Source of the DNA: Chromatiales bacterium
GTDB taxonomy: Bacteria > Pseudomonadota > Gammaproteobacteria > RBG-16-57-12
Direction of reading: 5' to 3'
Assembly (NCBI GenBank): GCA_026989455.1
Contig: JALSJH010000059.1
Coordinates: 784 to 64,783, forward strand
DNA length: 64,000 nt
The position numbers were made by a program, and so were the translations under genes. The notes below the pieces were generated by a model. That model saw only the letters and a program-made list of their open reading frames with translations, ran no database searches and had not been told where the DNA came from. Below are positions 7,855 to 44,296 of the stretch, one piece after another; position 1 is the first letter of the stretch; each line of letters begins with the position of its first letter.

Positions 7855-8772
7855 TCACTTGGTATGACAGGTGAGACACAAGGCGCTTTCGGCGTTTGAG
7901 ATCCGTAAAAAACTTGGAATGAACTCACTGGTTGGCCCTGCCGATGGCACACCATGGGGGTCATGACAAGAGGCACACTCCACCTCATAGCCCTCCCCCG
8001 TATTGTACATGCGAATTTCGTTGGTATCACTCCGGCCATTTCCATTGATATCAAAAAAGCTTAATTTCCCAGCCTGAATGCCCGTAGGTATCCTAAAGTC
8101 GACGCCCGCGCCAAGGGTGGTGGGATATTCCACGCCGATGGGGTGGTCATTACGTAGATCAGTACTGATGAAAAAGGCTGAAAAATCGGCCATTCCCAGC
8201 GAAGGAAACATCGGTGGTGTGCCATGGCAGCGGTTGCAGTCTGAGGCGGTGCTACCAAACATAACCGCGTGGTTGCCACCGCTAGGGCCTGGCCCACTCC
8301 AGCTATCGAGAAAGGCCATATCAACACTGCTCTCCTGAGCGGGGTTATAACCACCCGAGCCGGGCATGTTGATCACCGAGTCTATGGCGATGGTGCCATC
8401 GTGACAAGAGAGGCAGGTTAACGAATTAGCCCCAGGGTCGGTGATAGTCTGGCCTAGGGTGGTGGGCATGTCGTAGAGTGTATAGGGATCCGACGGGCGG
8501 GTTCTGTTCCAAAGTGGTATCGCCCCCATCTGGCCGCTGGCTCCATGGGGGGTGTGGCAGTAGACACATACGGCATCATAGTCGTTGCGATAGGCGTTCA
8601 TGAACCCTTCCATGTCTGAGTAGCGCTGGGTCAGGTTATGCCCGGTGTTGGCTACCGTGGTATGGTTGGGTGCCTTGGAGGCCGCACGCCAGCCATCAGC
8701 AGAGGCTACTGAAATCAATAGCAGAGTGCTGATTGTAACGAGCAGTACCAAAGAGCTACGGGTGAATCGCAT
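7855..8772 (-). CDS. Secreted pentaheme c-type cytochrome
   Basis: Signal peptide followed by five CxxCH motifs (CVYCH, CLSCH, CNRCH, CASCH, CLTCH). Paralogous to the ORF at 32782-33633. Monocistronic and divergent from the histidine kinase gene. Confidence 0.8.
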   Translation of the reverse strand: MRFTRSSLVLLVTISTLLLISVASADGWRAASKAPNHTTVANTGHNLTQRYSDMEGFMNAYRNDYDAVCVYCHTPHGASGQMGAIPLWNRTRPSDPYTLYDMPTTLGQTITDPGANSLTCLSCHDGTIAIDSVINMPGSGGYNPAQESSVDMAFLDSWSGPGPSGGNHAVMFGSTASDCNRCHGTPPMFPSLGMADFSAFFISTDLRNDHPIGVEYPTTLGAGVDFRIPTGIQAGKLSFFDINGNGRSDTNEIRMYNTGEGYEVECASCHDPHGVPSAGPTSEFIPSFLRISNAESALCLTCHTK

Positions 8773-9049
8773 ACAACCTCCACGGCCAAGCGTAAATATT
8801 AATTAGTGTATTATAGTTGTTATTTTTTGGTTAATAAAGTTTATAAGTGAAGCGACCTTCTAGGTGAGAGACTATTGGTTGGGTGCGGTTACGATCGCTA
8901 CTCTCTACTTGTATAGTGTCGACCAATCACGACAAACCTTTTGTTTTTTGTTGGATTGGGTGAGGGTTTTCTGCGATGGCCCCAAGAGTGGACGTTTTGG
9001 GTGGGTTGAAAATTACCGAAGAGCCGAAGATGGTGGATCCGTAAGCGCT

Positions 9050-10810
9050 ATGAAAAAACTAATCGATAAATTTGATACGCCGATCCATCACGAGCAGATA
9101 CGCGCCCTGTATCAGCAGTCACCCTTTGTGCTCTTCAGTGTGTTGGCAGTAACTTTCATCGTTGCCATCTTTTTTTGGGAGCAGGTTGATCACCAGCTGC
9201 TGATCTCCTGGGTGGTGGTCAATTTGTCACTCACTTTTGCTAGGGTAGTGCTGGTTAAATCTTTTCAACGTGTTAACCCACAGGGGTCCACGCTGGTGAA
9301 GTGGGGGTTGCTGTTCTCATTTTCATCGCTGCTTTCCGGGGTTATCTGGGGGCAGATCGCGGTTCTGTTTATGGATACGGGGGATTTGATCAATACCCTG
9401 TTTTCGGTGCTGGTAATTATTGGCATGGCATCGGGAAGCCAGGTTTCACTCTCCACTTTCTTGCCAGCCTACTTTGGTTTTGGTGTGCCAACGCTGCTGC
9501 CACTGGCGGTTGTTTTATTCAATCAGCCTGAAAACACCTTTGTATTGATTGGTTATATGGCGATGGTGTTCATCATCGCCAGTCTGGCCTTCTCGCTCAT
9601 TATGAATCGCAATGTTTCGGAGTCGATACGGCTGCGATTCGAAAATCTGGATCTGCTGGAGAGCCTTGAACTGCAAAAAGATATTGCTGAAAAAGCCAAT
9701 ACAGATAAATCACGGTTCCTTGCGGCGACCAGCCATGACCTACGCCAACCGCTGCACGCCATGGACCTTTACCTGGGTGCCTTAAAAAATATACTGAGTG
9801 AACAGGAGCAGGTTGAGCTGTTAAATAAGGGGCTGCAATCCAGTGCCGCGCTGGGTGAACTATTGGCGGCGTTGATGGATGTATCACGTCTGGATGCGGG
9901 GGATGTGGTGGTTGATTTCAGCGTGGTTAACCTCGATAGCTTGTTGCAGACTATCTGTGATGAGTATCAGGAGAAGGCGAGTTGCCAGAAGATGGTGCTT
10001 GAGTTTAAGCCATCGAAGTTGCTAGTGGAGAGTGACGAGTTAATGTTGGGGCGGATGCTGCGTAATTTGGTTAATAATGCGTGTACCCATAGCGCCGGAA
10101 CTCATATTTTACTTAAGGCTGAAAAGAGTGGAGAGCGAGTATGTCTTACGGTATTTGATAATGGTAAAGGTATCCCTAAGTCGCAACAGCAACAGGTGTT
10201 TTCCGAGTTTTATCAGTTGAATAATCCTGAGCGTGACAGAAATAAAGGGCTGGGTCTAGGGTTGGCTATTGTTAAGCGCCTTGCCACTCTTTTGCACCAT
10301 GATCTGCAGCTGGAGAGTGCGGCAGGAGAGGGCTGCTCTTTTAAGTTGTGTTTGCCCTTTATCGGGGTGGCTGATAACGCGGTGATCGATGCGGTGGATA
10401 CCACTAGCCTGGATGTCTCTGGGCTGTTTGTCATTCTTGTTGATGATGAAGCGGATATCAGAAATGCCATGCGCACCTTGTTGTTGCAATGGGGGTGTGA
10501 GTTGCTGGTGGCGGACAGTTTGCAATCATTGCAGCGGGAGCTGGCCGAAATTAACTATCCACAGCCCGATGTGTTGCTGTGTGACTATCGTCTGCGGGAG
10601 AATAAAAATGGTTTGGAGGTGGTTGTCGCCATGCGGCAATATTTTAATGAAGAACTTCCGGCGGTTATTATCAGTGGCGATACTGACAAAGCGATAGAGG
10701 CGGAGGCCCTGGAGCAGGGGTGTGATGTTTTACACAAGCCGATCCGCCCCGAGCTATTGCGTACAGCGATTTATAACCTTGCTAGGAAGTCTCTGATTAA
10801 GCCAGCATAA
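9050..10810 (+). CDS. Hybrid sensor histidine kinase (6-TM N-terminal sensor, HisKA, HATPase, C-terminal receiver)
   Basis: Six predicted TM helices. H-box ATSHDLRQPLHAM, N/G boxes (LVNNACTHS, DNGKGIP, GLGLGLAIV). C-terminal REC domain (ILVDDE ... LCDYRL). The track ORF begins at 8864, but the likely start is the ATG at 9050 (MKKLIDKF), so the start is approximate. Confidence 0.75.
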   Translation: MKKLIDKFDTPIHHEQIRALYQQSPFVLFSVLAVTFIVAIFFWEQVDHQLLISWVVVNLSLTFARVVLVKSFQRVNPQGSTLVKWGLLFSFSSLLSGVIWGQIAVLFMDTGDLINTLFSVLVIIGMASGSQVSLSTFLPAYFGFGVPTLLPLAVVLFNQPENTFVLIGYMAMVFIIASLAFSLIMNRNVSESIRLRFENLDLLESLELQKDIAEKANTDKSRFLAATSHDLRQPLHAMDLYLGALKNILSEQEQVELLNKGLQSSAALGELLAALMDVSRLDAGDVVVDFSVVNLDSLLQTICDEYQEKASCQKMVLEFKPSKLLVESDELMLGRMLRNLVNNACTHSAGTHILLKAEKSGERVCLTVFDNGKGIPKSQQQQVFSEFYQLNNPERDRNKGLGLGLAIVKRLATLLHHDLQLESAAGEGCSFKLCLPFIGVADNAVIDAVDTTSLDVSGLFVILVDDEADIRNAMRTLLLQWGCELLVADSLQSLQRELAEINYPQPDVLLCDYRLRENKNGLEVVVAMRQYFNEELPAVIISGDTDKAIEAEALEQGCDVLHKPIRPELLRTAIYNLARKSLIKPA

Positions 10811-10842: not shown

Positions 10843-11442
10843 TTATGAAGGACTGATACCTAAAAGTTCACGCGCTTTCAAGCCGGCCTGCATGCGATTA
10901 TCTACCTTCAGCAAGCGCAGCAGTACCGTGATGTACTGCTTGATAGTACCTTCCGATAGATACATCTTTTCTGCAATGTCCTTGTTGCTTAGCCCTTCGG
11001 CAAGATGAGCGAGAATCTGCTTCTGTTTATCTGAAAGGTCAACGGTGTTGGCTTTATCCAGATTAATAGGCAGATAACGTACACCCAATAAAACCTGCTT
11101 CACCGCCAGTAAAATGGTATCCCCTGAGGATGATTTTGTGACATAACCGGCAGCACCTGCATCAATACAACTGCGAATGGTCTGGCTATTTTCATCGGCA
11201 GAAACAATCAGCAGGGGGGGGCTTTTTAGTTGTGAGCAGAGCTGTTTGATGCTGACCGCGCCTTGCATTCCCGGCATCCCTAAATCCATCATCAATAGAC
11301 CGTAATCCGCGTGATGCAGGCGCTCTCTGACGCTATCCAGCGTATCAGCAAAATCAATAACCAGATCTTCATCGAGTTGTTTCAACCAGACCGCCATGCT
11401 GTCGCGGAACAGACCATGGTCATCGGCAAGTAATAGATGCAA
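10843..11442 (-). CDS. Response regulator, NarL/FixJ (LuxR-HTH) family
   Basis: N-terminal REC domain (LLLADDHGLFRD ... LLMMDLGMPG) and C-terminal LuxR HTH (LSDKQKQILAHLAEGLSNKDIAEKMYLSEGTIKQYITVLLRKL). Confidence 0.85.
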   Translation of the reverse strand: MHLLLADDHGLFRDSMAVWLKQLDEDLVIDFADTLDSVRERLHHADYGLLMMDLGMPGMQGAVSIKQLCSQLKSPPLLIVSADENSQTIRSCIDAGAAGYVTKSSSGDTILLAVKQVLLGVRYLPINLDKANTVDLSDKQKQILAHLAEGLSNKDIAEKMYLSEGTIKQYITVLLRLLKVDNRMQAGLKARELLGISPS

Positions 11443-11540: not shown

Positions 11541-11600
11541 ATATTGGGTGGGGGCTGTTTAGGTGATAATGAGCACACTAACATATCAGCATTAAAAAGG

Positions 11601-14453
11601 ATGTTACACATGTATAACCCGCGAAAAGGTACCTTGTTTTACCCGTTTTTAATCGCTGCGCTACTGCTCTCCATAACCCTGCTTAGTGGCTGTGGTGGGG
11701 GTGAAGAGAGTGTTGCTGAGGGTGCGCCGGAGACGTTGCAGGAGGAGGCCATCATCGCAACATCCAAGATTTCTGGTTATGTTCTGGTAGCGAGTCTCCC
11801 GGTCAATGACACAACAGTGCAATACACATACCAGGCTTCTTTTGATAATGGTGACTTTCCAGCAAGCCAGGTGACGGCTCGCATTACCGAAACTCCGGAT
11901 GGCATCATCCTCATTGATGGTACCTTGAGCTTCAGTAATGTGGAAGCCAGTGGTCGCCAAGTGAGTAACAAGCACTTTGTTATTCAACGTGATCTTAGTA
12001 AGCCATTTCATGTTAATGACCTGATTTGGGCTATTGAGGCTCAGCGTGAAGCCAGCCTAAGTTTTGATGCTGAACAGTATGAGCTGCGGATGGGGGTTGG
12101 CGAGACCCGCGATGTCAGTTACCAGCTATTGGCGTTCAATCCGGATACGGTGGCTACTGGGCTGAGTTTGCGGGAAGAGGTTGATGCGGCTGTGCAGCTG
12201 AGCAGCCGTAATAGCGGCGTAATTAGTTTGACCCCAGGTAGTAGTCGTTTTCGGCTTAGCCAGAGCATCACCTCCCTGACTACCGGTCGTTTTGAATTGA
12301 CCCTTACCGCTACTTTGCCAAGTACTGGCTTGGAGCAGAGCGTGCGCATCAATATTATTGTTGAAGCCGATTTGGATGGCGATGGTGTGCCTGATGAGAT
12401 TGATCTGTGTGCCTTTAGTATCTTGGGTGACTCCGTCGATAACAGTGGTTGTGCGGCAACCGATGTGGTTGATAGCAGCGCCTTTCGTGACTTGCAGATA
12501 GGTGAGACCACCTTTCGTGTGCAAGAGAATAATCTCGAAGAGCAATACTCAAACGGCATACTCACCGGGTTGCAGGCCAGTGGCTCACTCTTACTACTGA
12601 CCCCTCTCGGTGATATTGTATTGAAAGAGGCTGAGCTTGTTTTTGAGTATGGTACATCCGGGATGGGTGGTATCGAGCGTCTACGGGGTACTGCACAAGT
12701 CCCCTTTCCTGATGTGGGTATGCTGGCTGATGCAGAGGTTGGTACACCGGTGATAGCGGATGTGGGCCTCGATTATGGCCGTAACTTGTCTGATCTTGAA
12801 GCACCGTTGGTAGATGATCGCCAATATCTGTTTTTCAACTTTAGTGCTGGCTTTGAGGCGAGTGTTGGCCCTATCAGTTTCGAAGCGCCGGGTGGCAAGG
12901 CGATTACCTTTGTTCTCGATCCGCTGGACCCCTTCTTTTTCTTCACCGGCGACCTGCCAGGGCTGTCTGATATCGGAGTAGAAGATCTTGGTATTGCCAT
13001 GTCACTGCGGGGGCTGATTCCCTTCACACCTGATACGACTTGGGGTATCGGTGATGATATCGGTAATTTTGATGCCAACCTCTATCTGCAAGGTGTCATT
13101 CCCTTTGCTCGTTGGCCGTTAAATCTTGATGGTTCGCTGGTGGTTGATGTGGATGCCAATGACGATGGGCAGACGCTGTTTAACAGCTTTACGCCAGATG
13201 TAGAGTATGGGGGCAATGGTACGCTCAATGTGGGTGTCGATTTCCTTAAGTTTTTCGGTTTTAGTTTCGAATTGGGCAGTGCCAGTCTGGGTATTAAAAT
13301 GACCAATGGTGAGCAGAATGCCTATTTTAGCGGCATGCTTGATCCCGACACCGATTTTTTGCCGCAAGAGTTGGTGCCAATTCGCCCCAGTGCCACGGTT
13401 AACATGGCGGGCCTTATCAGTGACGATATCGCCAAATCATTTTTACGTGGTGAGGGTGAGTTTAATCTCGATGCTTCAACACTAGGGCGCTTGGTGGGCA
13501 TCAATCTTAATAACCTCAGTACGACAAGCGCAACATTCAGCGCTGACCGTGATGGTATAAACCTGACGGGCTATACACGCACCAGCATCTACCCTGATGT
13601 GGGTTTTGATGGGGATGCTCGGCTCAATGCCAATTTTACGGGGTCATTGACTAGCTGGAGTATCGATCTCAGCGGTGAGATGTCAATTGCCAATACCCCA
13701 ATCAGTGAAGGTCGGCTAGAGGTCAGTACAGCGGGCATGTTGGTGAGTGGTGAGTTTGTCACACCGTTGACCCGCATCGGGATGAACGGGCAGATTGATG
13801 CCAGTGGCATTGAAATGCGCGGTAATACAGGCATTACTATTCCGATCAGCGTGGTGGAGAGCGTGGTTGAGTGGGTGGTAGATGCCGCTATCTGCGGTAC
13901 TGAACGGGTGACTGATGCCGCACGGTGCGGCTTGGATTCAGTGACCAGCAGTGCAATTTGTGGCTACCAGGCCGTGACCAGCGCGGCTCAATGTGGTACC
14001 CGCACCGTGACCAGTGCGGTTCACTGTGGTACGAGCACCATTACCAGTGCCGCCAGATGTGGAACCAATTGGGTGACCGACATCGCAACGTGTGGCTGGA
14101 GTGTCATTACTGGGCAAGGGGGTTGCAGTGTTGCTAGGTCTTGCAGTGTTGCCAATAGCTGTAGTATCGCTAACACCTGTGATATTGCGAATACCTGCTC
14201 GATACCCGCAAGCTGTGATATTCCCCGTGGTTGTAACAACAGCACCAATGTCACGCTTCCAAAGGGTGAATTCCGTGGTGACATCGAACTGTTATTGGGT
14301 AATCAGGGTATCGGTGGTGAAGTGAGTGGTGACTACTGCTTTGCGGGTGACTGCACCACCCTTACTGGGGGACGAGTCAAGGCCGGTAGTAGTGGTCTGG
14401 AGGCATGTATAACCATCCCTGCGGGTATTGGTGAGGTGTGCGCGCCTATCTAA
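11601..14453 (+). CDS. Large lipoprotein with C-terminal Cys-Gly tandem repeat module
   Basis: Likely start at 11601 (MLHMYNPRKG, AAGGA RBS); the track ORF starts at 11544. Lipobox LLSGC. One TSP3-like Ca loop (DLDGDGVPDEID). The C-terminus has 7 x 11-aa repeats (AxCGxxxVTSA) followed by 6 x 6-aa repeats ([ST]C[SD][IV][AP][NR]). No recognisable enzymatic motif. Confidence 0.7.
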   Translation: MLHMYNPRKGTLFYPFLIAALLLSITLLSGCGGGEESVAEGAPETLQEEAIIATSKISGYVLVASLPVNDTTVQYTYQASFDNGDFPASQVTARITETPDGIILIDGTLSFSNVEASGRQVSNKHFVIQRDLSKPFHVNDLIWAIEAQREASLSFDAEQYELRMGVGETRDVSYQLLAFNPDTVATGLSLREEVDAAVQLSSRNSGVISLTPGSSRFRLSQSITSLTTGRFELTLTATLPSTGLEQSVRINIIVEADLDGDGVPDEIDLCAFSILGDSVDNSGCAATDVVDSSAFRDLQIGETTFRVQENNLEEQYSNGILTGLQASGSLLLLTPLGDIVLKEAELVFEYGTSGMGGIERLRGTAQVPFPDVGMLADAEVGTPVIADVGLDYGRNLSDLEAPLVDDRQYLFFNFSAGFEASVGPISFEAPGGKAITFVLDPLDPFFFFTGDLPGLSDIGVEDLGIAMSLRGLIPFTPDTTWGIGDDIGNFDANLYLQGVIPFARWPLNLDGSLVVDVDANDDGQTLFNSFTPDVEYGGNGTLNVGVDFLKFFGFSFELGSASLGIKMTNGEQNAYFSGMLDPDTDFLPQELVPIRPSATVNMAGLISDDIAKSFLRGEGEFNLDASTLGRLVGINLNNLSTTSATFSADRDGINLTGYTRTSIYPDVGFDGDARLNANFTGSLTSWSIDLSGEMSIANTPISEGRLEVSTAGMLVSGEFVTPLTRIGMNGQIDASGIEMRGNTGITIPISVVESVVEWVVDAAICGTERVTDAARCGLDSVTSSAICGYQAVTSAAQCGTRTVTSAVHCGTSTITSAARCGTNWVTDIATCGWSVITGQGGCSVARSCSVANSCSIANTCDIANTCSIPASCDIPRGCNNSTNVTLPKGEFRGDIELLLGNQGIGGEVSGDYCFAGDCTTLTGGRVKAGSSGLEACITIPAGIGEVCAPI
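13880..14240 (+). repeat. Coding tandem repeats (33-bp then 18-bp units) encoding Cys-containing peptide repeats
   Basis: Periodic protein sequence ICGTERVTDAA / RCGLDSVTSSA / ICGYQAVTSAA / QCGTRTVTSAV / HCGTSTITSAA / RCGTNWVTDIA / TCGWSVITGQG, then SCSVAN / SCSIAN / TCDIAN / TCSIPA / SCDIPR. Confidence 0.7.
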
Positions 14454-23588: not shown

Positions 23589-26426
23589 ATGCGCGATTGG
23601 ATTAATTTATTACTGGTTATTACCTTTTCATTGGTATTGGCCGCCTGTGGTGGCGATGGTTTGGGAACCTCCGGAACGACAGCCCAAGATCCGCCACCAG
23701 TGGCTGACCCAGATGCACCTGTTCCCACCTCAGATGCAACCAATATAACGCTATTGGTCAGTAGTCCGCAAATGCCATCAGACGGCTCAAATACAGTTAC
23801 CTTGACGGCGGTGGCACGAGATAACAGCAACAGGTATGTAGAAAACACTACCATTGAGTTCTCGGCATCATCCGGTGGTATTTTAACCGGTGAGCGCACT
23901 GCAACTAACTCTTCAGGGCGAGTCTCTGCAACGCTGGATATTGGTGGCGACCCCGCTAACAGAACAATTGTGGTTACTGCGGTTGATAGTGTAACCGGCC
24001 AGAGTGCTAATCGGTCAGTTGAAGTGAGGGACACGCGGTTTATCTTTTCCGGTCCTCAGCGTATTGAGGTGGGTGAGAGTGCTGAGTTAGTGGTGCAGTT
24101 AGTGGATGCTGGTGGTAACCCAATCACCTTTCAAAATATCACCTTGACCTCCTCTCAGGGTAATACCATACAAGCACCTACTGGGCTGGTTACTGATAGT
24201 ACCGGTCGTATTACAGTGACAGTACTTGGCGGGGTCGCGGGTTCTGATTTCATTACCGCCAGCGCTTTTGGTCTGAATGCTGATAACAGTACCTTTTCAC
24301 TGGATATTATCACTGCGGATGCCATTTCATTTTACTTCGACTTGCCGGTCGATAATGCTGAGATTGCATTGGGCACGAACGCTGCTTTTCGTGTCTGCTT
24401 GACGGATGGCGCAGCCGCTGTAGCGGCGGGAACCACCATTCAAATTTCATCTACCCGCGGAACCTTTGGTTCAAGTGGTGGAGCTGTTGCCTCTTACAGC
24501 TCGGATGGATTGGCAACTTGTTGGGATGATACGCTGTCCAACCAAGGAGCGGGCTTCGCTCAGGTATTGGCGACTACCTCCAGTGCTACAGTCGCTTATG
24601 ATGAGCTGAGTGCCTCAAAATTACTTGAGTTTATTTCAACCACTGTCAGCTTAGTTAATATACAAGCTGCGAAATCCATTTTGGAGCGCGGAGAGCAGAC
24701 TCAAATTGTCGCTACATTGCGTGATAGTCACTATAATTTGGTGAAAAATAGAACGGTCAGTTTTTCCATTGATGCCGATGCCAGTAATGGCAATCTTAAC
24801 CCCCCCACAGCGACCACCAACAGTAATGGGGAGGCAACAGTTGTCTATACTGCGGGGATGGCTAGCTCTGGGCTGTATGATGTTATTATCAAAGCAGAAG
24901 ATTATGAGTCGGGGCTTTTTTCAACCACAGAGCTTACGGTTCAAAATAGAGCATTGCATGTAGCGCTGGGTCGCGGTAATACTATGGCTAATTATGATGA
25001 TGGGTCCTTAACCTCCTACGCGCTACCTTATAGTGCCATCGTAACTGATTCTGCTGGGCAACCTGTTGCTAATCAGCCGATAAGCCTCTCCATCTGGTCG
25101 CATCGATATTTCAAAGGTAGTTACTACCCCACATACTCTCCAACCGGCGGTTTTATTCTCTATAGCAATGCACCAGTTGATGAGTATGAGTGGGATGTGC
25201 CCGGTGACGGTGTAATTAGTTGGGGGCGCGTGCTCAGTTGTGGTAATGAAGATACTGATTTTAACGGCATCGCAGACTTTAATGAGGACCTCAATAGAAA
25301 TAGAACTTTTGACCGGACAAATGAAGATCTGAATGGTAATGGTGTTATCGATTTAAGTGAGGATACCAATGCAAATGGTATTTTGGATATTCTTGAGGAT
25401 GCGAATCGAAATGGTATTTTAGATCCGGGTGAGGATCTTAATGGTAATGGTAAATTGGATGCCACTGAAGATATCAACCTCAATGGGGTGTTGGATGGTA
25501 GTGAAGATGTCAATGAAAATGGTATTTTGGATGTGCTCGAAGATACCAACCTCAATGGTCGATTGGATCCAGGCGAGGATTTGAATTTCAATGGTGTGCT
25601 AGATGCTACGGAGGATCTGGACGGCGATGGTTTCTTGACCTCGGAAGATATTAATCGCAACGGTATTTTGGACCCGGGTGAAGATACCAATGGTGATGGT
25701 GTGTTGACCACAGAAGATCTTAACGGCAACGGGGTGCTGGATGTCAGTGAAGATCTTAACCTCAACGGTGTGCTGGATTTTGGTGAAGACCTGAACGGTA
25801 ACGGTATCATTGATGTGAGTGAAGACCGTAATTTGAATGGTTTTCTGGATGTGCTTGAAGATGCCAATAGAAATGGCGTGTTAGACCCGGGTGAAGACCT
25901 CAATGGTAATGGTCTTTTAGATCTTAGCGAAGATATTAATGGTAATGGTGTGCTGGATGTTGATGAAGACATTAATGGTGATGGCGTATTCTATGCCTAC
26001 GAGGATAGTAACCAAAATGGTATTTTAGACCCGGGTGAAGATCTGAATGGTGACGGTATTCTCAACCTTCCAGTAGATGTAGATGTGAATGGTAATGGCC
26101 GTCTTGACCCAGGCAATGTTGCGACAATTTCGGTAGATGACACTATTGGTGCCTTCTCAATCAACACCACCACTGATGAAAATGGTGTGGCTATCTTTGC
26201 AGTGATTTATGCTGAAAGTTTTGCAGGTTGGTTGGAGGTGTCACTTGAAGCGAGAGTGATCGTTGATGGTACTGAAAACTCGGACCGGACTCGCTTTATT
26301 TTACCGGCACTGGCCGATGACCTTAATCAGGAGGATACTCCCCCGGCAGGCTATGTTAGCCCCTTTGGTCGTGGTTATGATGTGCGTACTGGCCTGATTC
26401 AGGGTTGTACGGTGGACGAGATTTAG
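23589..26426 (+). CDS. Large lipoprotein with bacterial Ig-like domains and about 25 tandem EF-hand/TSP3-like calcium-binding loops
   Basis: Lipobox LVLAACGG. Several roughly 90-aa Ig-like (Big-type) repeats (TIVVTAVDSVTGQSANRSVEV and similar). From about residue 545 to 850, back-to-back 11-13 aa loops match D-x-N-x-N-G-x-L-D-x-x-E-D. Confidence 0.75.
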   Translation: MRDWINLLLVITFSLVLAACGGDGLGTSGTTAQDPPPVADPDAPVPTSDATNITLLVSSPQMPSDGSNTVTLTAVARDNSNRYVENTTIEFSASSGGILTGERTATNSSGRVSATLDIGGDPANRTIVVTAVDSVTGQSANRSVEVRDTRFIFSGPQRIEVGESAELVVQLVDAGGNPITFQNITLTSSQGNTIQAPTGLVTDSTGRITVTVLGGVAGSDFITASAFGLNADNSTFSLDIITADAISFYFDLPVDNAEIALGTNAAFRVCLTDGAAAVAAGTTIQISSTRGTFGSSGGAVASYSSDGLATCWDDTLSNQGAGFAQVLATTSSATVAYDELSASKLLEFISTTVSLVNIQAAKSILERGEQTQIVATLRDSHYNLVKNRTVSFSIDADASNGNLNPPTATTNSNGEATVVYTAGMASSGLYDVIIKAEDYESGLFSTTELTVQNRALHVALGRGNTMANYDDGSLTSYALPYSAIVTDSAGQPVANQPISLSIWSHRYFKGSYYPTYSPTGGFILYSNAPVDEYEWDVPGDGVISWGRVLSCGNEDTDFNGIADFNEDLNRNRTFDRTNEDLNGNGVIDLSEDTNANGILDILEDANRNGILDPGEDLNGNGKLDATEDINLNGVLDGSEDVNENGILDVLEDTNLNGRLDPGEDLNFNGVLDATEDLDGDGFLTSEDINRNGILDPGEDTNGDGVLTTEDLNGNGVLDVSEDLNLNGVLDFGEDLNGNGIIDVSEDRNLNGFLDVLEDANRNGVLDPGEDLNGNGLLDLSEDINGNGVLDVDEDINGDGVFYAYEDSNQNGILDPGEDLNGDGILNLPVDVDVNGNGRLDPGNVATISVDDTIGAFSINTTTDENGVAIFAVIYAESFAGWLEVSLEARVIVDGTENSDRTRFILPALADDLNQEDTPPAGYVSPFGRGYDVRTGLIQGCTVDEI
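25224..26139 (+). repeat. Coding tandem repeat (roughly 36-39 bp units) encoding the Ca-binding loop array
   Basis: Visible periodicity of GATxTxAATGGxAATGGTGTGCTGGAT-like units. The antisense ORF 25160-25972 is an artefact of this repeat. Confidence 0.7.
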
Positions 26427-31570: not shown

Positions 31571-31675
31571 ATGCCTCTATCTGCTGAATAGTTACGATTG
31601 CTTCTGGATAGGGTGGCCAAGGGTGTGAAAAGAGTTAGCCCTCACTTGAGGGCTAATCTACGAGCCGATCAGTGA

Positions 31676-32806
31676 CTACTGCTCTTTCTCTTTCATCTCT
31701 TTGCGGATTTTATCTCTATATTTCACGCCTAAATAACCATCTTGTGCTGTGATTGAGGCTGGCCTGAAGATGTCAATCTTTCGAAAAAACTGATCGGCAT
31801 AATAGATGCGACCATCTTCATCAACTTCTAACCCGGAAGGGAGCATGAAAGTACCTGGTCTACCATCGTTGCTGCGGCTGCCAATGAACAGAAGTAGCTG
31901 ACCCTCGGGGTTGAATATCTGGAAGTTGCCAAATGCCGAGTCACCAACATAGACGTTGTTATCTTTGTCTGTCGCAATTCCTTTTGGCCGTGAAAAGTTG
32001 CCACTGTAGCGTCCGGCAACACCGAATGTAGATATGAAGTCACCCTCTGCGGTGAAAGACTGGACACGGAAGTTGCCGCCATCCACAACGTAAACGGTTC
32101 CATCGGGTGCGGTGCTGACCTGAATGGGTAGATTGAAATCACCCGGTTTTTTACCACGCTCTCCGACAACTCTTTTGATTTCAAATGTCTCAGCATCGAT
32201 GACATACATGTGATGACGGGTGCTGCTAATGCCCCCGCTATCGATCACATAGAGGGTTTTTCCATCAGGGCTGACGGCGACACCCGATGGGCGGTCAAAG
32301 AGGGTTCGTCCTTCCAGCTTGCGCTGGTATTCACCCTCTTCATTGTATACTTTTATACTTTTATCTGTGATGTCAGCTACATATAGATTGCCATCCGCGT
32401 CGATGTCGATTCCTAGCGGTTTTAGCAGCATGCCAGGCCCCTCTTTTACACCGATAAAAGAGGTCTTCCCTCTGGGTACATCGAATAAAATGACGGCACG
32501 CTGAACGGTGTCAGTTACATATATTTTCCCTTTTCTGACTGCGATACCAAAAGGTTTTGCCAAGCCTGTTGTGCTTTCAGTGGAACCGGTTGCCAGAAAC
32601 TTGAATTTCATTGCGGCCGTTACATCTGCAATGCTGGCACCGCTGTAGATGGTTCGTTCATATATGAATCTAGGGTCTTCTGGAGGGTATTGCGGTGGTT
32701 TGAATTCGGGGCGGTTCTCGCTTGAGCAGCCCGTGAGGGCGGCCATGACGAACAGCAGTGAGAGCGCAAGGGTTGTTGTTATTATTTTGTGTGGCAAGTG
32801 TTGCAT
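31676..32806 (-). CDS. NHL-repeat beta-propeller lipoprotein
   Basis: Lipobox LTGC. Six NHL-like repeats (GIAVRKGKIYVTD, GIDIDADGNLYVAD, GVAVSPDGKTLYVID and others). Its start overlaps the upstream cytochrome gene by about 25 bp, indicating an operon. Confidence 0.75.
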   Translation of the reverse strand: MQHLPHKIITTTLALSLLFVMAALTGCSSENRPEFKPPQYPPEDPRFIYERTIYSGASIADVTAAMKFKFLATGSTESTTGLAKPFGIAVRKGKIYVTDTVQRAVILFDVPRGKTSFIGVKEGPGMLLKPLGIDIDADGNLYVADITDKSIKVYNEEGEYQRKLEGRTLFDRPSGVAVSPDGKTLYVIDSGGISSTRHHMYVIDAETFEIKRVVGERGKKPGDFNLPIQVSTAPDGTVYVVDGGNFRVQSFTAEGDFISTFGVAGRYSGNFSRPKGIATDKDNNVYVGDSAFGNFQIFNPEGQLLLFIGSRSNDGRPGTFMLPSGLEVDEDGRIYYADQFFRKIDIFRPASITAQDGYLGVKYRDKIRKEMKEKEQ

Positions 32807-33633
32807 AAAATTTCTCTTCTCACCGTTAGTAGAAGTTCGTTGGTTGAGTTGTGTACATCATGGCAAGATGCACACTCTATATTTCCATCGTAAAGGCGAA
32901 CACCATTGCTGAAACCTGCTGGATCCAATGGGAGCTTAAAGTCGCGATCTCGCCAGTTGAACCCGCCATACTGAATGGATATCGGGTGTTCATCTGAGAG
33001 GTCGGTGCCCAATACTTTCGGGGAAATATCGTGTGCGGCCTCTCCATCATGACATGTGCCGCAGCTGTCTAAATCTTTCGCGCTGTTCATGCGCATGTGC
33101 ATCGCAGCATCATCTTCACTCCTAAAGCTGCCAGGTGTGAAGAGCACCATATCCATTGCCATGGTGCCATCGTGGCATGAGAGGCAGAGCAAACTAATGC
33201 TGGACGGGGTGCGCAGCGGCGCATCGAGGCTGGGTGATGTGTAGGGTGTGTATTGATCGGCTGCGGGTGCAAAACGGTTCCAGCCTGCAATGCCCCCCAA
33301 TAGCTCACTGTCGGTATCGGCCTCTTCTGGCGGCAAGTGGCAGTAGACGCAGGGGTTTCCGTAGTCAGAAAAAGCAACCCCTGCCATTGCATTAACCCCG
33401 GCACGCTCATTGAGGCCAGTGAAGTCATGCTTTGAACCCATGATCGGATCATTCAGGCCAATGACCGGGTCAGCTATAATACCGACTGTCGCCAAAGCCT
33501 GTGATAGCCCGAAGGCTGATGCAATGACAGCAGAGAACAGTAGCAAATGCTTTCTACCCAAGGGCATATGAAATTTTAGAGAGTCTTTTAAGTTCATTTT
33601 GTTCCATTTTTTTTTGGGCATAATTAGCCGCAA
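32782..33633 (-). CDS. Secreted pentaheme c-type cytochrome (paralog of 7855-8772)
   Basis: Five CxxCH motifs (CVYCH, CLSCH, CGTCH, CASCH, CNTCH) in the same order, with the same flanking residues (LxCLSCHDGT, DHPI, ECASCHDxH, C-terminal CxTCHTK) as the other copy. The signal peptide suggests the real start may be the internal Met at about 33567. Confidence 0.8.
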   Translation of the reverse strand: MRLIMPKKKWNKMNLKDSLKFHMPLGRKHLLLFSAVIASAFGLSQALATVGIIADPVIGLNDPIMGSKHDFTGLNERAGVNAMAGVAFSDYGNPCVYCHLPPEEADTDSELLGGIAGWNRFAPAADQYTPYTSPSLDAPLRTPSSISLLCLSCHDGTMAMDMVLFTPGSFRSEDDAAMHMRMNSAKDLDSCGTCHDGEAAHDISPKVLGTDLSDEHPISIQYGGFNWRDRDFKLPLDPAGFSNGVRLYDGNIECASCHDVHNSTNELLLTVRREILCNTCHTK

Positions 33634-34021: not shown

Positions 34022-34987
34022 TTGCCTGCGAGCTATGCCTTGATGCTAAATACCACAAAATCGCTGATCCAACAGTATAGTAGGGTCGCTGTACTAGCCT
34101 GGCTCACGTTGTTAGCTCCGGCCATTGCAGCAGAACCCAGTAAAAATATTTTAGAGCTGCCCGCAGAAGTTCAATTAAACACTCTTACACATATACCTTT
34201 GAGTGAAAGTGAGGTGCGCACCAAGGTGGAGTATGCGCATCGTCTTTTTGATATGAGTCTCGCTAAACGAATTTCTAGCAGTCATCATGAGCAGGCAATA
34301 ATGTTGCTGGAACAAGCGCATGCGCAGGCTGATGCTGCACAACAAGCGCTTGCTAACGGTGCACTGTCTGAGGCTGATGATTTGGTGAATCAGTGCTATC
34401 GCAGCATAGCCATCGCTTCGACGCTGGTGCCCAGCGAGCACCAGCGTGCTCTTGCAAAAACAACGCACTCGAGCATGGTTGAAGGGTTGGCTCACGCCAA
34501 GGAACTCCATGCAAAGGCTTACCAGCGAGTGGCTGAAATCAGTCAGCATGTTAAGTTTGACGCGGAAGCCGTTTATCAACTTGAACAGTTGGCGATGAGT
34601 GAGGTGGTTGATAATAATTACCAAGAGGCCAATCGACATTTGCGGCAAGCTCGAATGCTGGTAGACCTTGCTACCATGAAGATGCTAGATAATCAGACCG
34701 TTACCTATCACGTTGATGTCAGCACACCAGCGCTGGAGTATCAATATGAGGTGGGGCGTTTTCGCAGTTACGAAGAGCTTATTCCGGTAGCCATTGAGAT
34801 GAAAAAGCCCAATAAAATGCAGTTGATGTTGATTACTCGAAAGGTGGATGAAGGCTTGTGGAAGGCTGAGCAGGCACAAATCACGGCAGATGCGGGGGAT
34901 TACCCCAAGGCCATCCGTATGGTGATGGATGCCTCTGTTGATATTCGCAGGGGCTTGAAGCTGATGAAAGTAAAGCTCTATGAATAG
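34022..34987 (+). CDS. Hypothetical secreted alpha-helical protein
   Basis: A signal-peptide-like segment (VAVLAWLTLLAPAIAA) after an internal Met at about 34043. The remainder is helical and rich in A/E/Q, with no known motif. Confidence 0.5.
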   Translation: MPASYALMLNTTKSLIQQYSRVAVLAWLTLLAPAIAAEPSKNILELPAEVQLNTLTHIPLSESEVRTKVEYAHRLFDMSLAKRISSSHHEQAIMLLEQAHAQADAAQQALANGALSEADDLVNQCYRSIAIASTLVPSEHQRALAKTTHSSMVEGLAHAKELHAKAYQRVAEISQHVKFDAEAVYQLEQLAMSEVVDNNYQEANRHLRQARMLVDLATMKMLDNQTVTYHVDVSTPALEYQYEVGRFRSYEELIPVAIEMKKPNKMQLMLITRKVDEGLWKAEQAQITADAGDYPKAIRMVMDASVDIRRGLKLMKVKLYE

Positions 34988-43945: not shown

Positions 43946-44296
43946 CTATTTTTTATGGCAAGCCTGGCAACTGGCTGAGCCGGGGAATGCGATGATTGAG
44001 TGGTTGTGATGTTCAGTGCCCTGATCTTCTGCTGTGCTGTTGTGGCAGTCCAAGCAACTTACCCCAGCTCTGGTGTGCGCATCATCGACGATACGGGTGA
44101 GTGGTTGAAGATGTGCTTGTTGATGGCACTCTATGCAGGGTGCGCTCTGTTGAGTGGTGTCTGCGTAAGCGAGTGGTGCGTTGATAAAAACGAGTGCGGC
44201 TGTAGCTAGCCAGTAGTAAGTATGTGAAATTGCTCTGCATGGCTGTTGTTCGTGCTGTTTGTTTAGGTTTGGTGTGGTTGTTTGGTTGGAAATCAT
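43946..44296 (-). CDS. Small secreted tri-heme c-type cytochrome
   Basis: Three CxxCH motifs (CIECH, CLDCH, CQACH) after a hydrophobic signal-like segment. The start codon is uncertain. Confidence 0.55.
   Translation of the reverse strand: MISNQTTTPNLNKQHEQQPCRAISHTYYWLATAALVFINAPLAYADTTQQSAPCIECHQQAHLQPLTRIVDDAHTRAGVSCLDCHNSTAEDQGTEHHNHSIIAFPGSASCQACHKK

Follow-up and report, generated by a model that had tools for sequence, protein, structure and literature searches.

A 64,000-nucleotide stretch of DNA (hereafter the window) from an uncultured gammaproteobacterial metagenome-assembled genome (GenBank GCA_026989455.1, contig JALSJH010000059.1) encodes two pentaheme c-type cytochromes, which we name CytA and CytB. 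Sequence comparison places both in the OmcE/UetA superfamily, within which they combine the four-heme core of OmcE with a fifth heme. They represent two groups, A and B, whose aligned histidines differ in a manner indicative of a distal heme-ligand switch, and in other genomes both groups are almost always encoded beside an NHL-repeat beta-propeller lipoprotein. We consider it likely that CytA and CytB are envelope electron-transfer cytochromes that work together with an outer-membrane propeller lipoprotein.

Sequence relationships of CytA and CytB

CytA is encoded on the minus strand (7855-8772) as a protein of 305 amino acids (aa), with an N-terminus resembling a Sec signal peptide (…SVASA/DG) and the heme motifs CVYCH, CLSCH, CNRCH, CASCH and CLTCH in that order. 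CytB, also on the minus strand (32782-33633), reads as 283 aa from a TTG start at 33633, with a signal-peptide-like start as well and the motifs CVYCH, CLSCH, CGTCH, CASCH and CNTCH. Because relatives of 80–90% identity (P0121-P0123) are 271 aa long, the true start of CytB is probably Met13 (ATG at 33597), giving a protein of 271 aa; the closer CytB relatives listed are mostly 258–271 aa. An initial sequence-only reading of the window had described two paralogous open reading frames (ORFs) with five CxxCH motifs in the same order and with conserved flanks. The order and the flanks (L[TL]CLSCHDGT, ECASCHD[PV]H and LC[LN]TCHTK) are as described, although the reported 'DHPI' segment is found unaltered only in CytA (NDHPI), the CytB sequence being DEHPI.

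The paralogy also holds, since CytA and CytB align with 32% identity over 248 aa (BLASTP, E=1e-25). One could object that such likeness reflects only the generic CxxCH spacing of unrelated multiheme cytochromes, and in favour of this the C-terminal two-heme Paired_CXXCH_1 domain is, apart from matches to short two-heme stretches, the only one above its curated Pfam cut-off. A similarity confined to the heme motifs, named by the sequence-only reading as the result that would overturn it, did not appear: with every CxxCH masked the alignment persists (E=2e-8 over 157 aa), and 300 motif-preserving shuffles of CytB averaged 25 bits and never rose above 43.5 bits, whereas the real pair scores 90 bits. 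Both proteins also share non-heme segments, namely WNR, GTDLxN/DEHP and an N-terminal KH/GH motif. The generic explanation is refuted by these data and we assign it practically no probability; on alignment evidence CytA and CytB are genuine, ancient paralogues. The third-position GC content is 0.605 for CytA, compared with 0.529 for CytB, 0.491 for the NHL gene next to CytB and 0.522 +/- 0.035 for ten housekeeping genes of the window, which hints that the solo copy may have been acquired or relocated separately.

Sequence searches of the PDB matched CytA to entries 9YUQ (E=2.4e-20) and 7TFS (E=3.2e-16), and CytB to 7TFS (E=7.7e-13) and 9YUQ (E=2.7e-9). Entry 9YUQ is the OmcE (DSOUD_2954) nanowire bundle of Desulfuromonas soudanensis and 7TFS the OmcE filament of Geobacter sulfurreducens. 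We rebuilt both OmcE sequences from the printed alignments of these searches and aligned them with CytA and CytB. All eight OmcE heme-ligand positions are kept in CytA and seven of the eight in CytB, in which the histidine of the 'TPH' motif is replaced by proline. CytA retains every OmcE motif (N-terminal K/G-H, CxxCH-TPH, CLSCHDG, NDHP, ECxSCHDxH and LCxxCHxK), and OmcE and the two cytochromes are alike in the order of heme motifs and distal histidines, including the WNR segment, and in the Sec signal peptide. The main departure is the loop between OmcE hemes 2 and 3, which spans ~25 residues in OmcE and ~55–75 in CytA and CytB. The fifth CxxCH and an additional histidine lie in this enlarged loop, which is situated between CLSCHDG, the motif of the second heme, and GTDLxNDHP; in CytA these are CNRCH and His168, beyond the eight OmcE ligands. 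OmcE is a tetraheme protein of about 200–210 aa in its mature form, whereas CytA and CytB, with five CxxCH motifs each and mature lengths of about 235–280 aa, fall outside a strict tetraheme definition. OmcE is known from filaments, with hosts in the Desulfuromonadia, whereas CytA and CytB are known from genes alone, in an uncultured gammaproteobacterium. Taken together, the alignments assign both proteins to the OmcE/UetA superfamily as a four-heme OmcE core plus a fifth heme.

Other multiheme families fit less well. Profile searches, one of the checks suggested in the sequence-only reading, placed Pfam Paired_CXXCH_1 (PF09699) above its gathering cut-off of 20.6 bits in both proteins (40.5 bits in CytA and 42.8 bits in CytB), covering the last two hemes only. 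Cytochrome_C7 (cut-off 24.8; CytB 35.0 and CytA 27.2 bits) and, in CytB, Cytochrom_c3_2 (25.5 bits, cut-off 25.0) narrowly passed their whole-protein cut-offs but matched only short two-heme stretches. The NrfB/NrfH/NapC, c3/c7 and MtrA/DmsE families share with CytA and CytB a multiheme c-type character, bis-histidine ligation and weak profile matches. Membership in NrfB, NrfH, NapC, DmsE or OmcA-MtrC was rejected as all NCBIfam scores lay far under the curated cut-offs (NrfH 20–22 against 134 bits, DmsE 25 against 192 and NrfB 13 against 167), and c3, c7 and MtrA-type membership was likewise rejected, Pfam and NCBIfam giving only generic two-heme or sub-cut-off matches.

The five-heme proteins are widespread. 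Among 1.84 billion cluster representatives searched, hits to a profile of groups A and B numbered 5,621 at E<=1e-3, of which 512 reached E<=1e-30. Relatives occur in Proteobacteria, both iron- or sulfur-oxidising ones and ordinary aerobic or denitrifying ones, and in Nitrospinota and Nitrospirota. CytA and CytB each have their own large set of relatives, 50–60% identical across distant taxa. Ten histidines are invariant in group A (45, 73, 76, 124, 168, 183, 210, 270, 273 and 303) and ten, in a differing set, in group B; each group therefore has two per heme, enough for five hemes. One distal ligand sets the two groups consistently apart. The TPH histidine is present in 60 of 61 A-type sequences and is a proline in all eight B-type sequences, while the loop histidine (His189 of CytB) occurs in 8/8 B-type and 0/61 A-type sequences. 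Judged from these aligned positions, the A/B difference is a distal heme-ligand switch, in which B has lost the TPH histidine and gained the loop histidine. Three five-heme proteins from Nitrospirota, found among the loci that we fetched for context (cited here by L numbers), hold both histidines and thus have 11 (L072 8618-9487, L073 9935-10723 and L084 9749-10630); they are plausible intermediates between the two ligand sets. Three group A members have a CxxxCH at the fifth-heme site, reading CTDRCH (L008 832-1743), CASYCH (L020 679-1737) and CAAYCH (L031 2600-3613).

A rough neighbour-joining tree of the superfamily (60 bootstraps) places OmcE outermost, followed by the tetraheme UetA-type proteins and then by a five-heme clade of two branches, one being group A and the other group B together with the Nitrospirota forms. 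Group A is recovered in 60/60 bootstraps and B with the Nitrospirota forms in 41/60. The topology suggests that the fifth heme arose once, although this is only suggestive because the entire five-heme clade is recovered in 29/60.

Pairing with an NHL propeller lipoprotein

Directly downstream of CytB on the minus strand lies a gene for an NHL-repeat, six-bladed beta-propeller lipoprotein (31676-32806; Pfam NHL E=6e-25, four repeats), with the lipobox LTGC and a serine at position +2 after the lipobox cysteine. Its start lies 25 nucleotides (nt) inside the end of CytB, so that the two form an overlapping unit and the NHL gene is probably a co-transcribed partner of CytB. A terminator-like hairpin follows 20 nt past the NHL stop (31635-31656, minus strand; a stem of nine pairs, five of them G-C, and then a T-rich tail), but as a pattern match only, since the region holds two such sites against 2.3 expected from shuffles. 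CytA, by contrast, is encoded alone, ~24 kb from CytB-NHL, and is thus among the few group A genes that have no NHL gene beside them.

To place these arrangements, we fetched 79 genome loci and 80 metagenome loci, scored their stop-to-stop ORFs with hidden Markov models of the groups and with the window's NHL protein, and counted an NHL gene within 800 bp as adjacent. An NHL gene lies beside the group A cytochrome in 46 of 53 loci, beside group B in every case (7/7 genome and 10/10 metagenome loci), and beside the tetraheme relatives in 20 of 21; in the metagenome loci, 45 of 51 four- to five-heme superfamily members have such a neighbour. The orientation differs between the groups: of the NHL genes at group A, 35 lie upstream in the same orientation and 10 are convergent, while at group B the NHL gene is directly downstream in all 17. 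The NHL and group A pair also occurs in cultured isolates (L014, L016, L017, L051 and L055), namely Hydrogenophaga sp. RWCD_12 and MI9, Ramlibacter monticola KACC 19175, Aromatoleum toluvorans Td21 and A. tolulyticum ATCC 51758.

In six gammaproteobacterial loci (L018, L019, L029, L037, L047 and L054) the genes form a single B-NHL-A string. We considered whether this string is an ancestral operon and rejected the idea, as B-centred sampling gave B-NHL without a downstream A, and the ranking of loci by their similarity to CytA had over-represented the six strings. In the B-centred sampling, B-NHL without A is no less frequent than B-NHL-A, and the strings are best read as evidence of linkage, not of ancestry. 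The canonical B context consists of two divergent genes for class-I cytochromes with 2–3 hemes, then B, NHL and a convergent gene for a one-heme PAS-GGDEF-EAL protein. The two class-I cytochrome genes are kept even in the relative that is 82% identical to CytB (L087) but are missing next to CytB-NHL here. In 12 loci the NHL-A pair adjoins a tetraheme-NHL cluster. The cluster of L086 reads NHL, tetraheme, peptidyl-prolyl isomerase (PPIase), porin-sized gene, two trihemes, UetF-position protein, triheme and two NHL genes, which is the Uet order; its triheme genes are c7-type and its UetA-position tetraheme matches OmcE at E=1e-24.

The Uet cluster (uetABCDEFGHIJ) of 'Ca. Tenderia electrophaga' and Gallionella comprises the tetraheme UetA, a PPIase, a porin, three c7 trihemes, a cupredoxin protein, two NHL proteins (UetH and UetI) and an undecaheme cytochrome. 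The UetA-position tetraheme is an OmcE homologue and, in our rough tree, a sister of the five-heme branch. Beside CytA and CytB there is none of the PPIase, porin and undecaheme genes and no string of c7 trihemes, and the only Uet features in the window are the NHL gene and a protein similar to the C-terminal half of the one at the UetF position. The Tenderiales also have a 'secondary c-type cytochrome cluster' with a pentaheme, an NHL-domain protein, two trihemes, a thioredoxin, periplasmic sensors and a heme cyclic di-GMP phosphodiesterase (bioRxiv 10.1101/2022.05.06.490989). Compared by description rather than by protein alignment, its gene make-up matches the CytB-family loci L003 and L087-L094. 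The window shares with it only the pentaheme-NHL pair, the two triheme genes and the phosphodiesterase being absent from the neighbourhood.

Minimal omcE clusters comprise two multiheme cytochromes, two beta-propeller lipoproteins, OmcE and a large beta-barrel, and a nearby gene for a large outer-membrane beta-barrel serves as the authors' criterion for nanowire-competent homologues (Petersen et al., bioRxiv 10.1101/2025.10.22.684050). The propeller lipoprotein gene alongside is common to these clusters and CytB, though CytA itself has none beside it in the window, and unlike omcE clusters the window has no nearby large beta-barrel, second propeller gene or glycosylation cluster. The same preprint suggests that '5-heme OmcE-like proteins' might form a 'leaky' family of nanowires and describes AlphaFold3 models in which the insulated four-heme chain is kept and a solvent-exposed heme is added. 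These proteins resemble CytA and CytB in their OmcE similarity, five CxxCH motifs and length, and come mostly from uncultured bacteria of several phyla. The text consulted gives no subdivision, gene context or ligand analysis of the 5-heme proteins; the A/B split and the NHL adjacency are added here.

Other genes of the window

Divergent from CytA lies a gene for a hybrid histidine kinase (8864-10810, plus strand), whose relatives start at Met64, corresponding to 585 aa. Its C-terminal region resembles the NahK/ErcS family (330 bits, under the cut-off of 400). In a crude hydropathy scan some six or seven hydrophobic segments follow one another closely, with no large periplasmic loop between them; its sensor part appears wholly membrane-embedded. 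The kinase gene is followed by genes for a LuxR-type response regulator resembling ErdR (10843-11442, minus strand; 96 bits, under the cut-off of 390) and for a lipoprotein-like protein of 969 aa (…LLSGC; 11544-14453, plus strand) without a family match. The C-terminus of the latter carries about seven 11-residue 'CGxxxVTxxAx' repeats, then cysteine-containing 'CSxANx' hexads. Homologues of these three genes near a CytA relative were found only in L006, where the cytochrome is 87% identical to CytA (L007 is a shorter contig with the same protein), and in none of the 79 genome-scan loci.

Divergent from CytB is a gene for a secreted helical protein of 321 aa (34022-34987, plus strand), which matches no family in Pfam or NCBIfam. 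Its alignment with the C-terminal half of the protein at the UetF position in L086 (14670-16301) covers 267 aa at 36% identity (E=6e-42), and seven further loci that carry tetraheme OmcE/UetA-like clusters hold weaker homologues. By this similarity it may be a remnant or accessory of a Uet-type toolkit.

A third, small cytochrome ORF, overlooked in the sequence-only reading along with the OmcE homology, lies on the minus strand between a tRNA-Leu and the RNase R gene (43946-44296). Its 116 aa begin with a signal-peptide-like N-terminus and hold three heme motifs (CIECH, CLDCH and CQACH) in ~70 mature residues, and it scores 22.3 bits with Cytochrome_C7 (cut-off 24.8). It could be a small periplasmic carrier. 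As a Uet-type partner it was rejected, since the ORFs of the first 86 loci that we fetched contained no homologue (E<=1e-5). The rest of the window is mainly housekeeping (dnaQ, an aroG-type DAHP synthase gene, mutL, argG, priA, argS, recA, alaS and the RNase R gene). Among these genes is one for an adhesin-like surface protein of 945 aa (23589-26426, plus strand) with Big_1 and invasin-D3 immunoglobulin-like domains. Most window ORFs of >=150 aa were scanned for porin families and none matched, nearly all of them being assigned to housekeeping or other functions; no dedicated beta-barrel predictor was used.

Possible roles and implications

We postulate the following role for the two cytochromes. 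The serine at +2 of the NHL lipoprotein predicts an outer-membrane anchor, from which the propeller would hold or assemble one or both cytochromes at the outer envelope. CytA and CytB would then connect the periplasmic cytochrome pool with an electron donor or acceptor that is external or part of the envelope. In relatives, this pool may be represented by the two class-I multi-heme cytochromes encoded beside B, and the related Uet and OmcE clusters would serve the same function with the help of a porin. CytA probably shares the propeller of CytB, as would be the case in B-NHL-A genomes, and the kinase beside CytA would be at most a lineage-specific regulator of its expression.

Several observations weigh against this role. 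The large beta-barrel, PPIase and class-I triheme genes of relatives were not found in the window, which would make the module minimal or dispersed. The sharing of one propeller by CytA and CytB is argued by analogy with other genomes only, and in the five assessable B-centred loci (L003, L088, L089, L090 and L094) A never follows B-NHL. The location of the five-heme members, in the periplasm or at the surface, and the direction of electron flow are likewise deduced from their genes. Many hosts of the NHL-A pair (Hydrogenophaga, Aromatoleum and Ramlibacter) have, to our knowledge, no known extracellular electron transfer. Structure prediction, which the sequence-only reading had proposed as a check for shared heme packing, gave no confirmation either: AlphaFold2 produced a mediocre model for CytA and a poor one for CytB (predicted local distance difference test scores of 67 and 55), and a Foldseek search with these models did not retrieve OmcE.

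A more specific proposal is that CytA, CytB or both polymerise extracellularly into OmcE-like filaments through inter-subunit histidine-heme ligation, with a solvent-exposed, 'leaky' fifth heme and the propeller as assembly or anchor factor. CytA keeps all eight OmcE ligands, so whichever histidine crosses subunits is included, and both groups have two histidines per heme as OmcE does; in the AlphaFold3 models the 5-heme OmcE-like proteins accommodate the heme chain of the filament (bioRxiv 10.1101/2025.10.22.684050), and beta-propeller lipoproteins are a hallmark of omcE clusters. On the other hand, the large beta-barrel gene used as a criterion by Petersen et al. is absent from the window and usually also from around other NHL-A and B-NHL pairs, CytB is without one of the eight OmcE ligands, and the histidine count is equally compatible with a closed monomer. 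No five-heme filament has been observed so far, and we regard this proposal as possible but doubtful. Another alternative confines the pair to the periplasm, where the NHL propeller would be the catalytic subunit of a redox enzyme and the pentaheme its dedicated electron relay, with no trans-envelope role. Propellers of the NHL-like kind include lyases, lactonases and arylesterases. The tight, near-universal gene pairing would suit such an enzyme, as would the propeller's weak matches to SGL/arylesterase-type families and, distantly, to the hydrazine synthase beta subunit, and the occurrence of the pair in many bacteria that are not known for extracellular electron transfer. However, the best propeller matches are to plain protein-binding NHL repeats (TRIM71, Thin and Brat), no catalytic family in Pfam or NCBIfam scored above its cut-off, and the lipoprotein anchor suggests a scaffold. 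The same propellers also accompany the structurally proven OmcE and the Uet porin-cytochrome cluster, and we judge a periplasmic enzyme unlikely.

The sequence-only reading had correctly seen CytA standing alone next to the kinase gene and CytB overlapping the propeller lipoprotein gene, and from this it proposed sub-functionalised duplicates with distinct partners, one perhaps sensing and the other delivering electrons. In its explicit form, CytA and the adjacent kinase would make up a redox sensor and CytB would donate electrons to the NHL protein. The divergent CytA/kinase arrangement is indeed kept in the 87%-identical relative, and signalling proteins such as the one-heme PAS-GGDEF-EAL protein flank CytB clusters elsewhere. 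The paralogy and the divergence into two separately conserved groups with a ligand switch are supported, but distinct partners are not: group A normally adjoins an NHL gene, a single NHL gene stands between B and A in six genomes, and the kinase, regulator and 969-aa neighbours are confined to L006/L007. Nothing supports the split into sensing and delivering either, as the kinase appears to offer no large periplasmic loop on which a periplasmic cytochrome could dock, and its nearest family models (NahK/ErcS type) are under their cut-offs. We therefore consider this division of labour very unlikely.

In a bolder reading, A and B might be complementary parts of one five-heme wire or conduit built on the propeller lipoprotein. 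B would be the propeller-bound base or cap, because its TPH ligand is replaced by the loop histidine and it is always directly upstream of the NHL gene, and A the polymerising or extending subunit, because it keeps the full OmcE ligand set. We offer this arrangement as a speculation of low probability.

Solved structures of cytochrome nanowires come from Geobacter, Desulfuromonas soudanensis and two archaea. A 5-heme OmcE-like family (in the 2025 preprint) and a pentaheme-NHL cluster in Tenderiales (in the 2022 preprint) had already been noted; this analysis adds the division into A and B with the accompanying ligand switch, an NHL pairing that is nearly universal in the superfamily, B-NHL-A strings in some genomes and the cultured carriers. 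CytA and CytB are members of a widespread five-heme branch, a large relative of the OmcE family. The A/B switch, with Nitrospirota forms holding both histidines, is a tidy example of heme-ligand replacement in evolution. The near-obligatory pairing points to the propeller lipoprotein as a conserved assembly or anchoring partner, here without a porin, and makes its role testable; several cultured strains carry the NHL-A pair. Should A and B prove to be complementary wire parts, they would constitute a porin-independent, 'leaky' cytochrome filament for electron uptake or exchange in Gammaproteobacteria, Betaproteobacteria and Nitrospinota.

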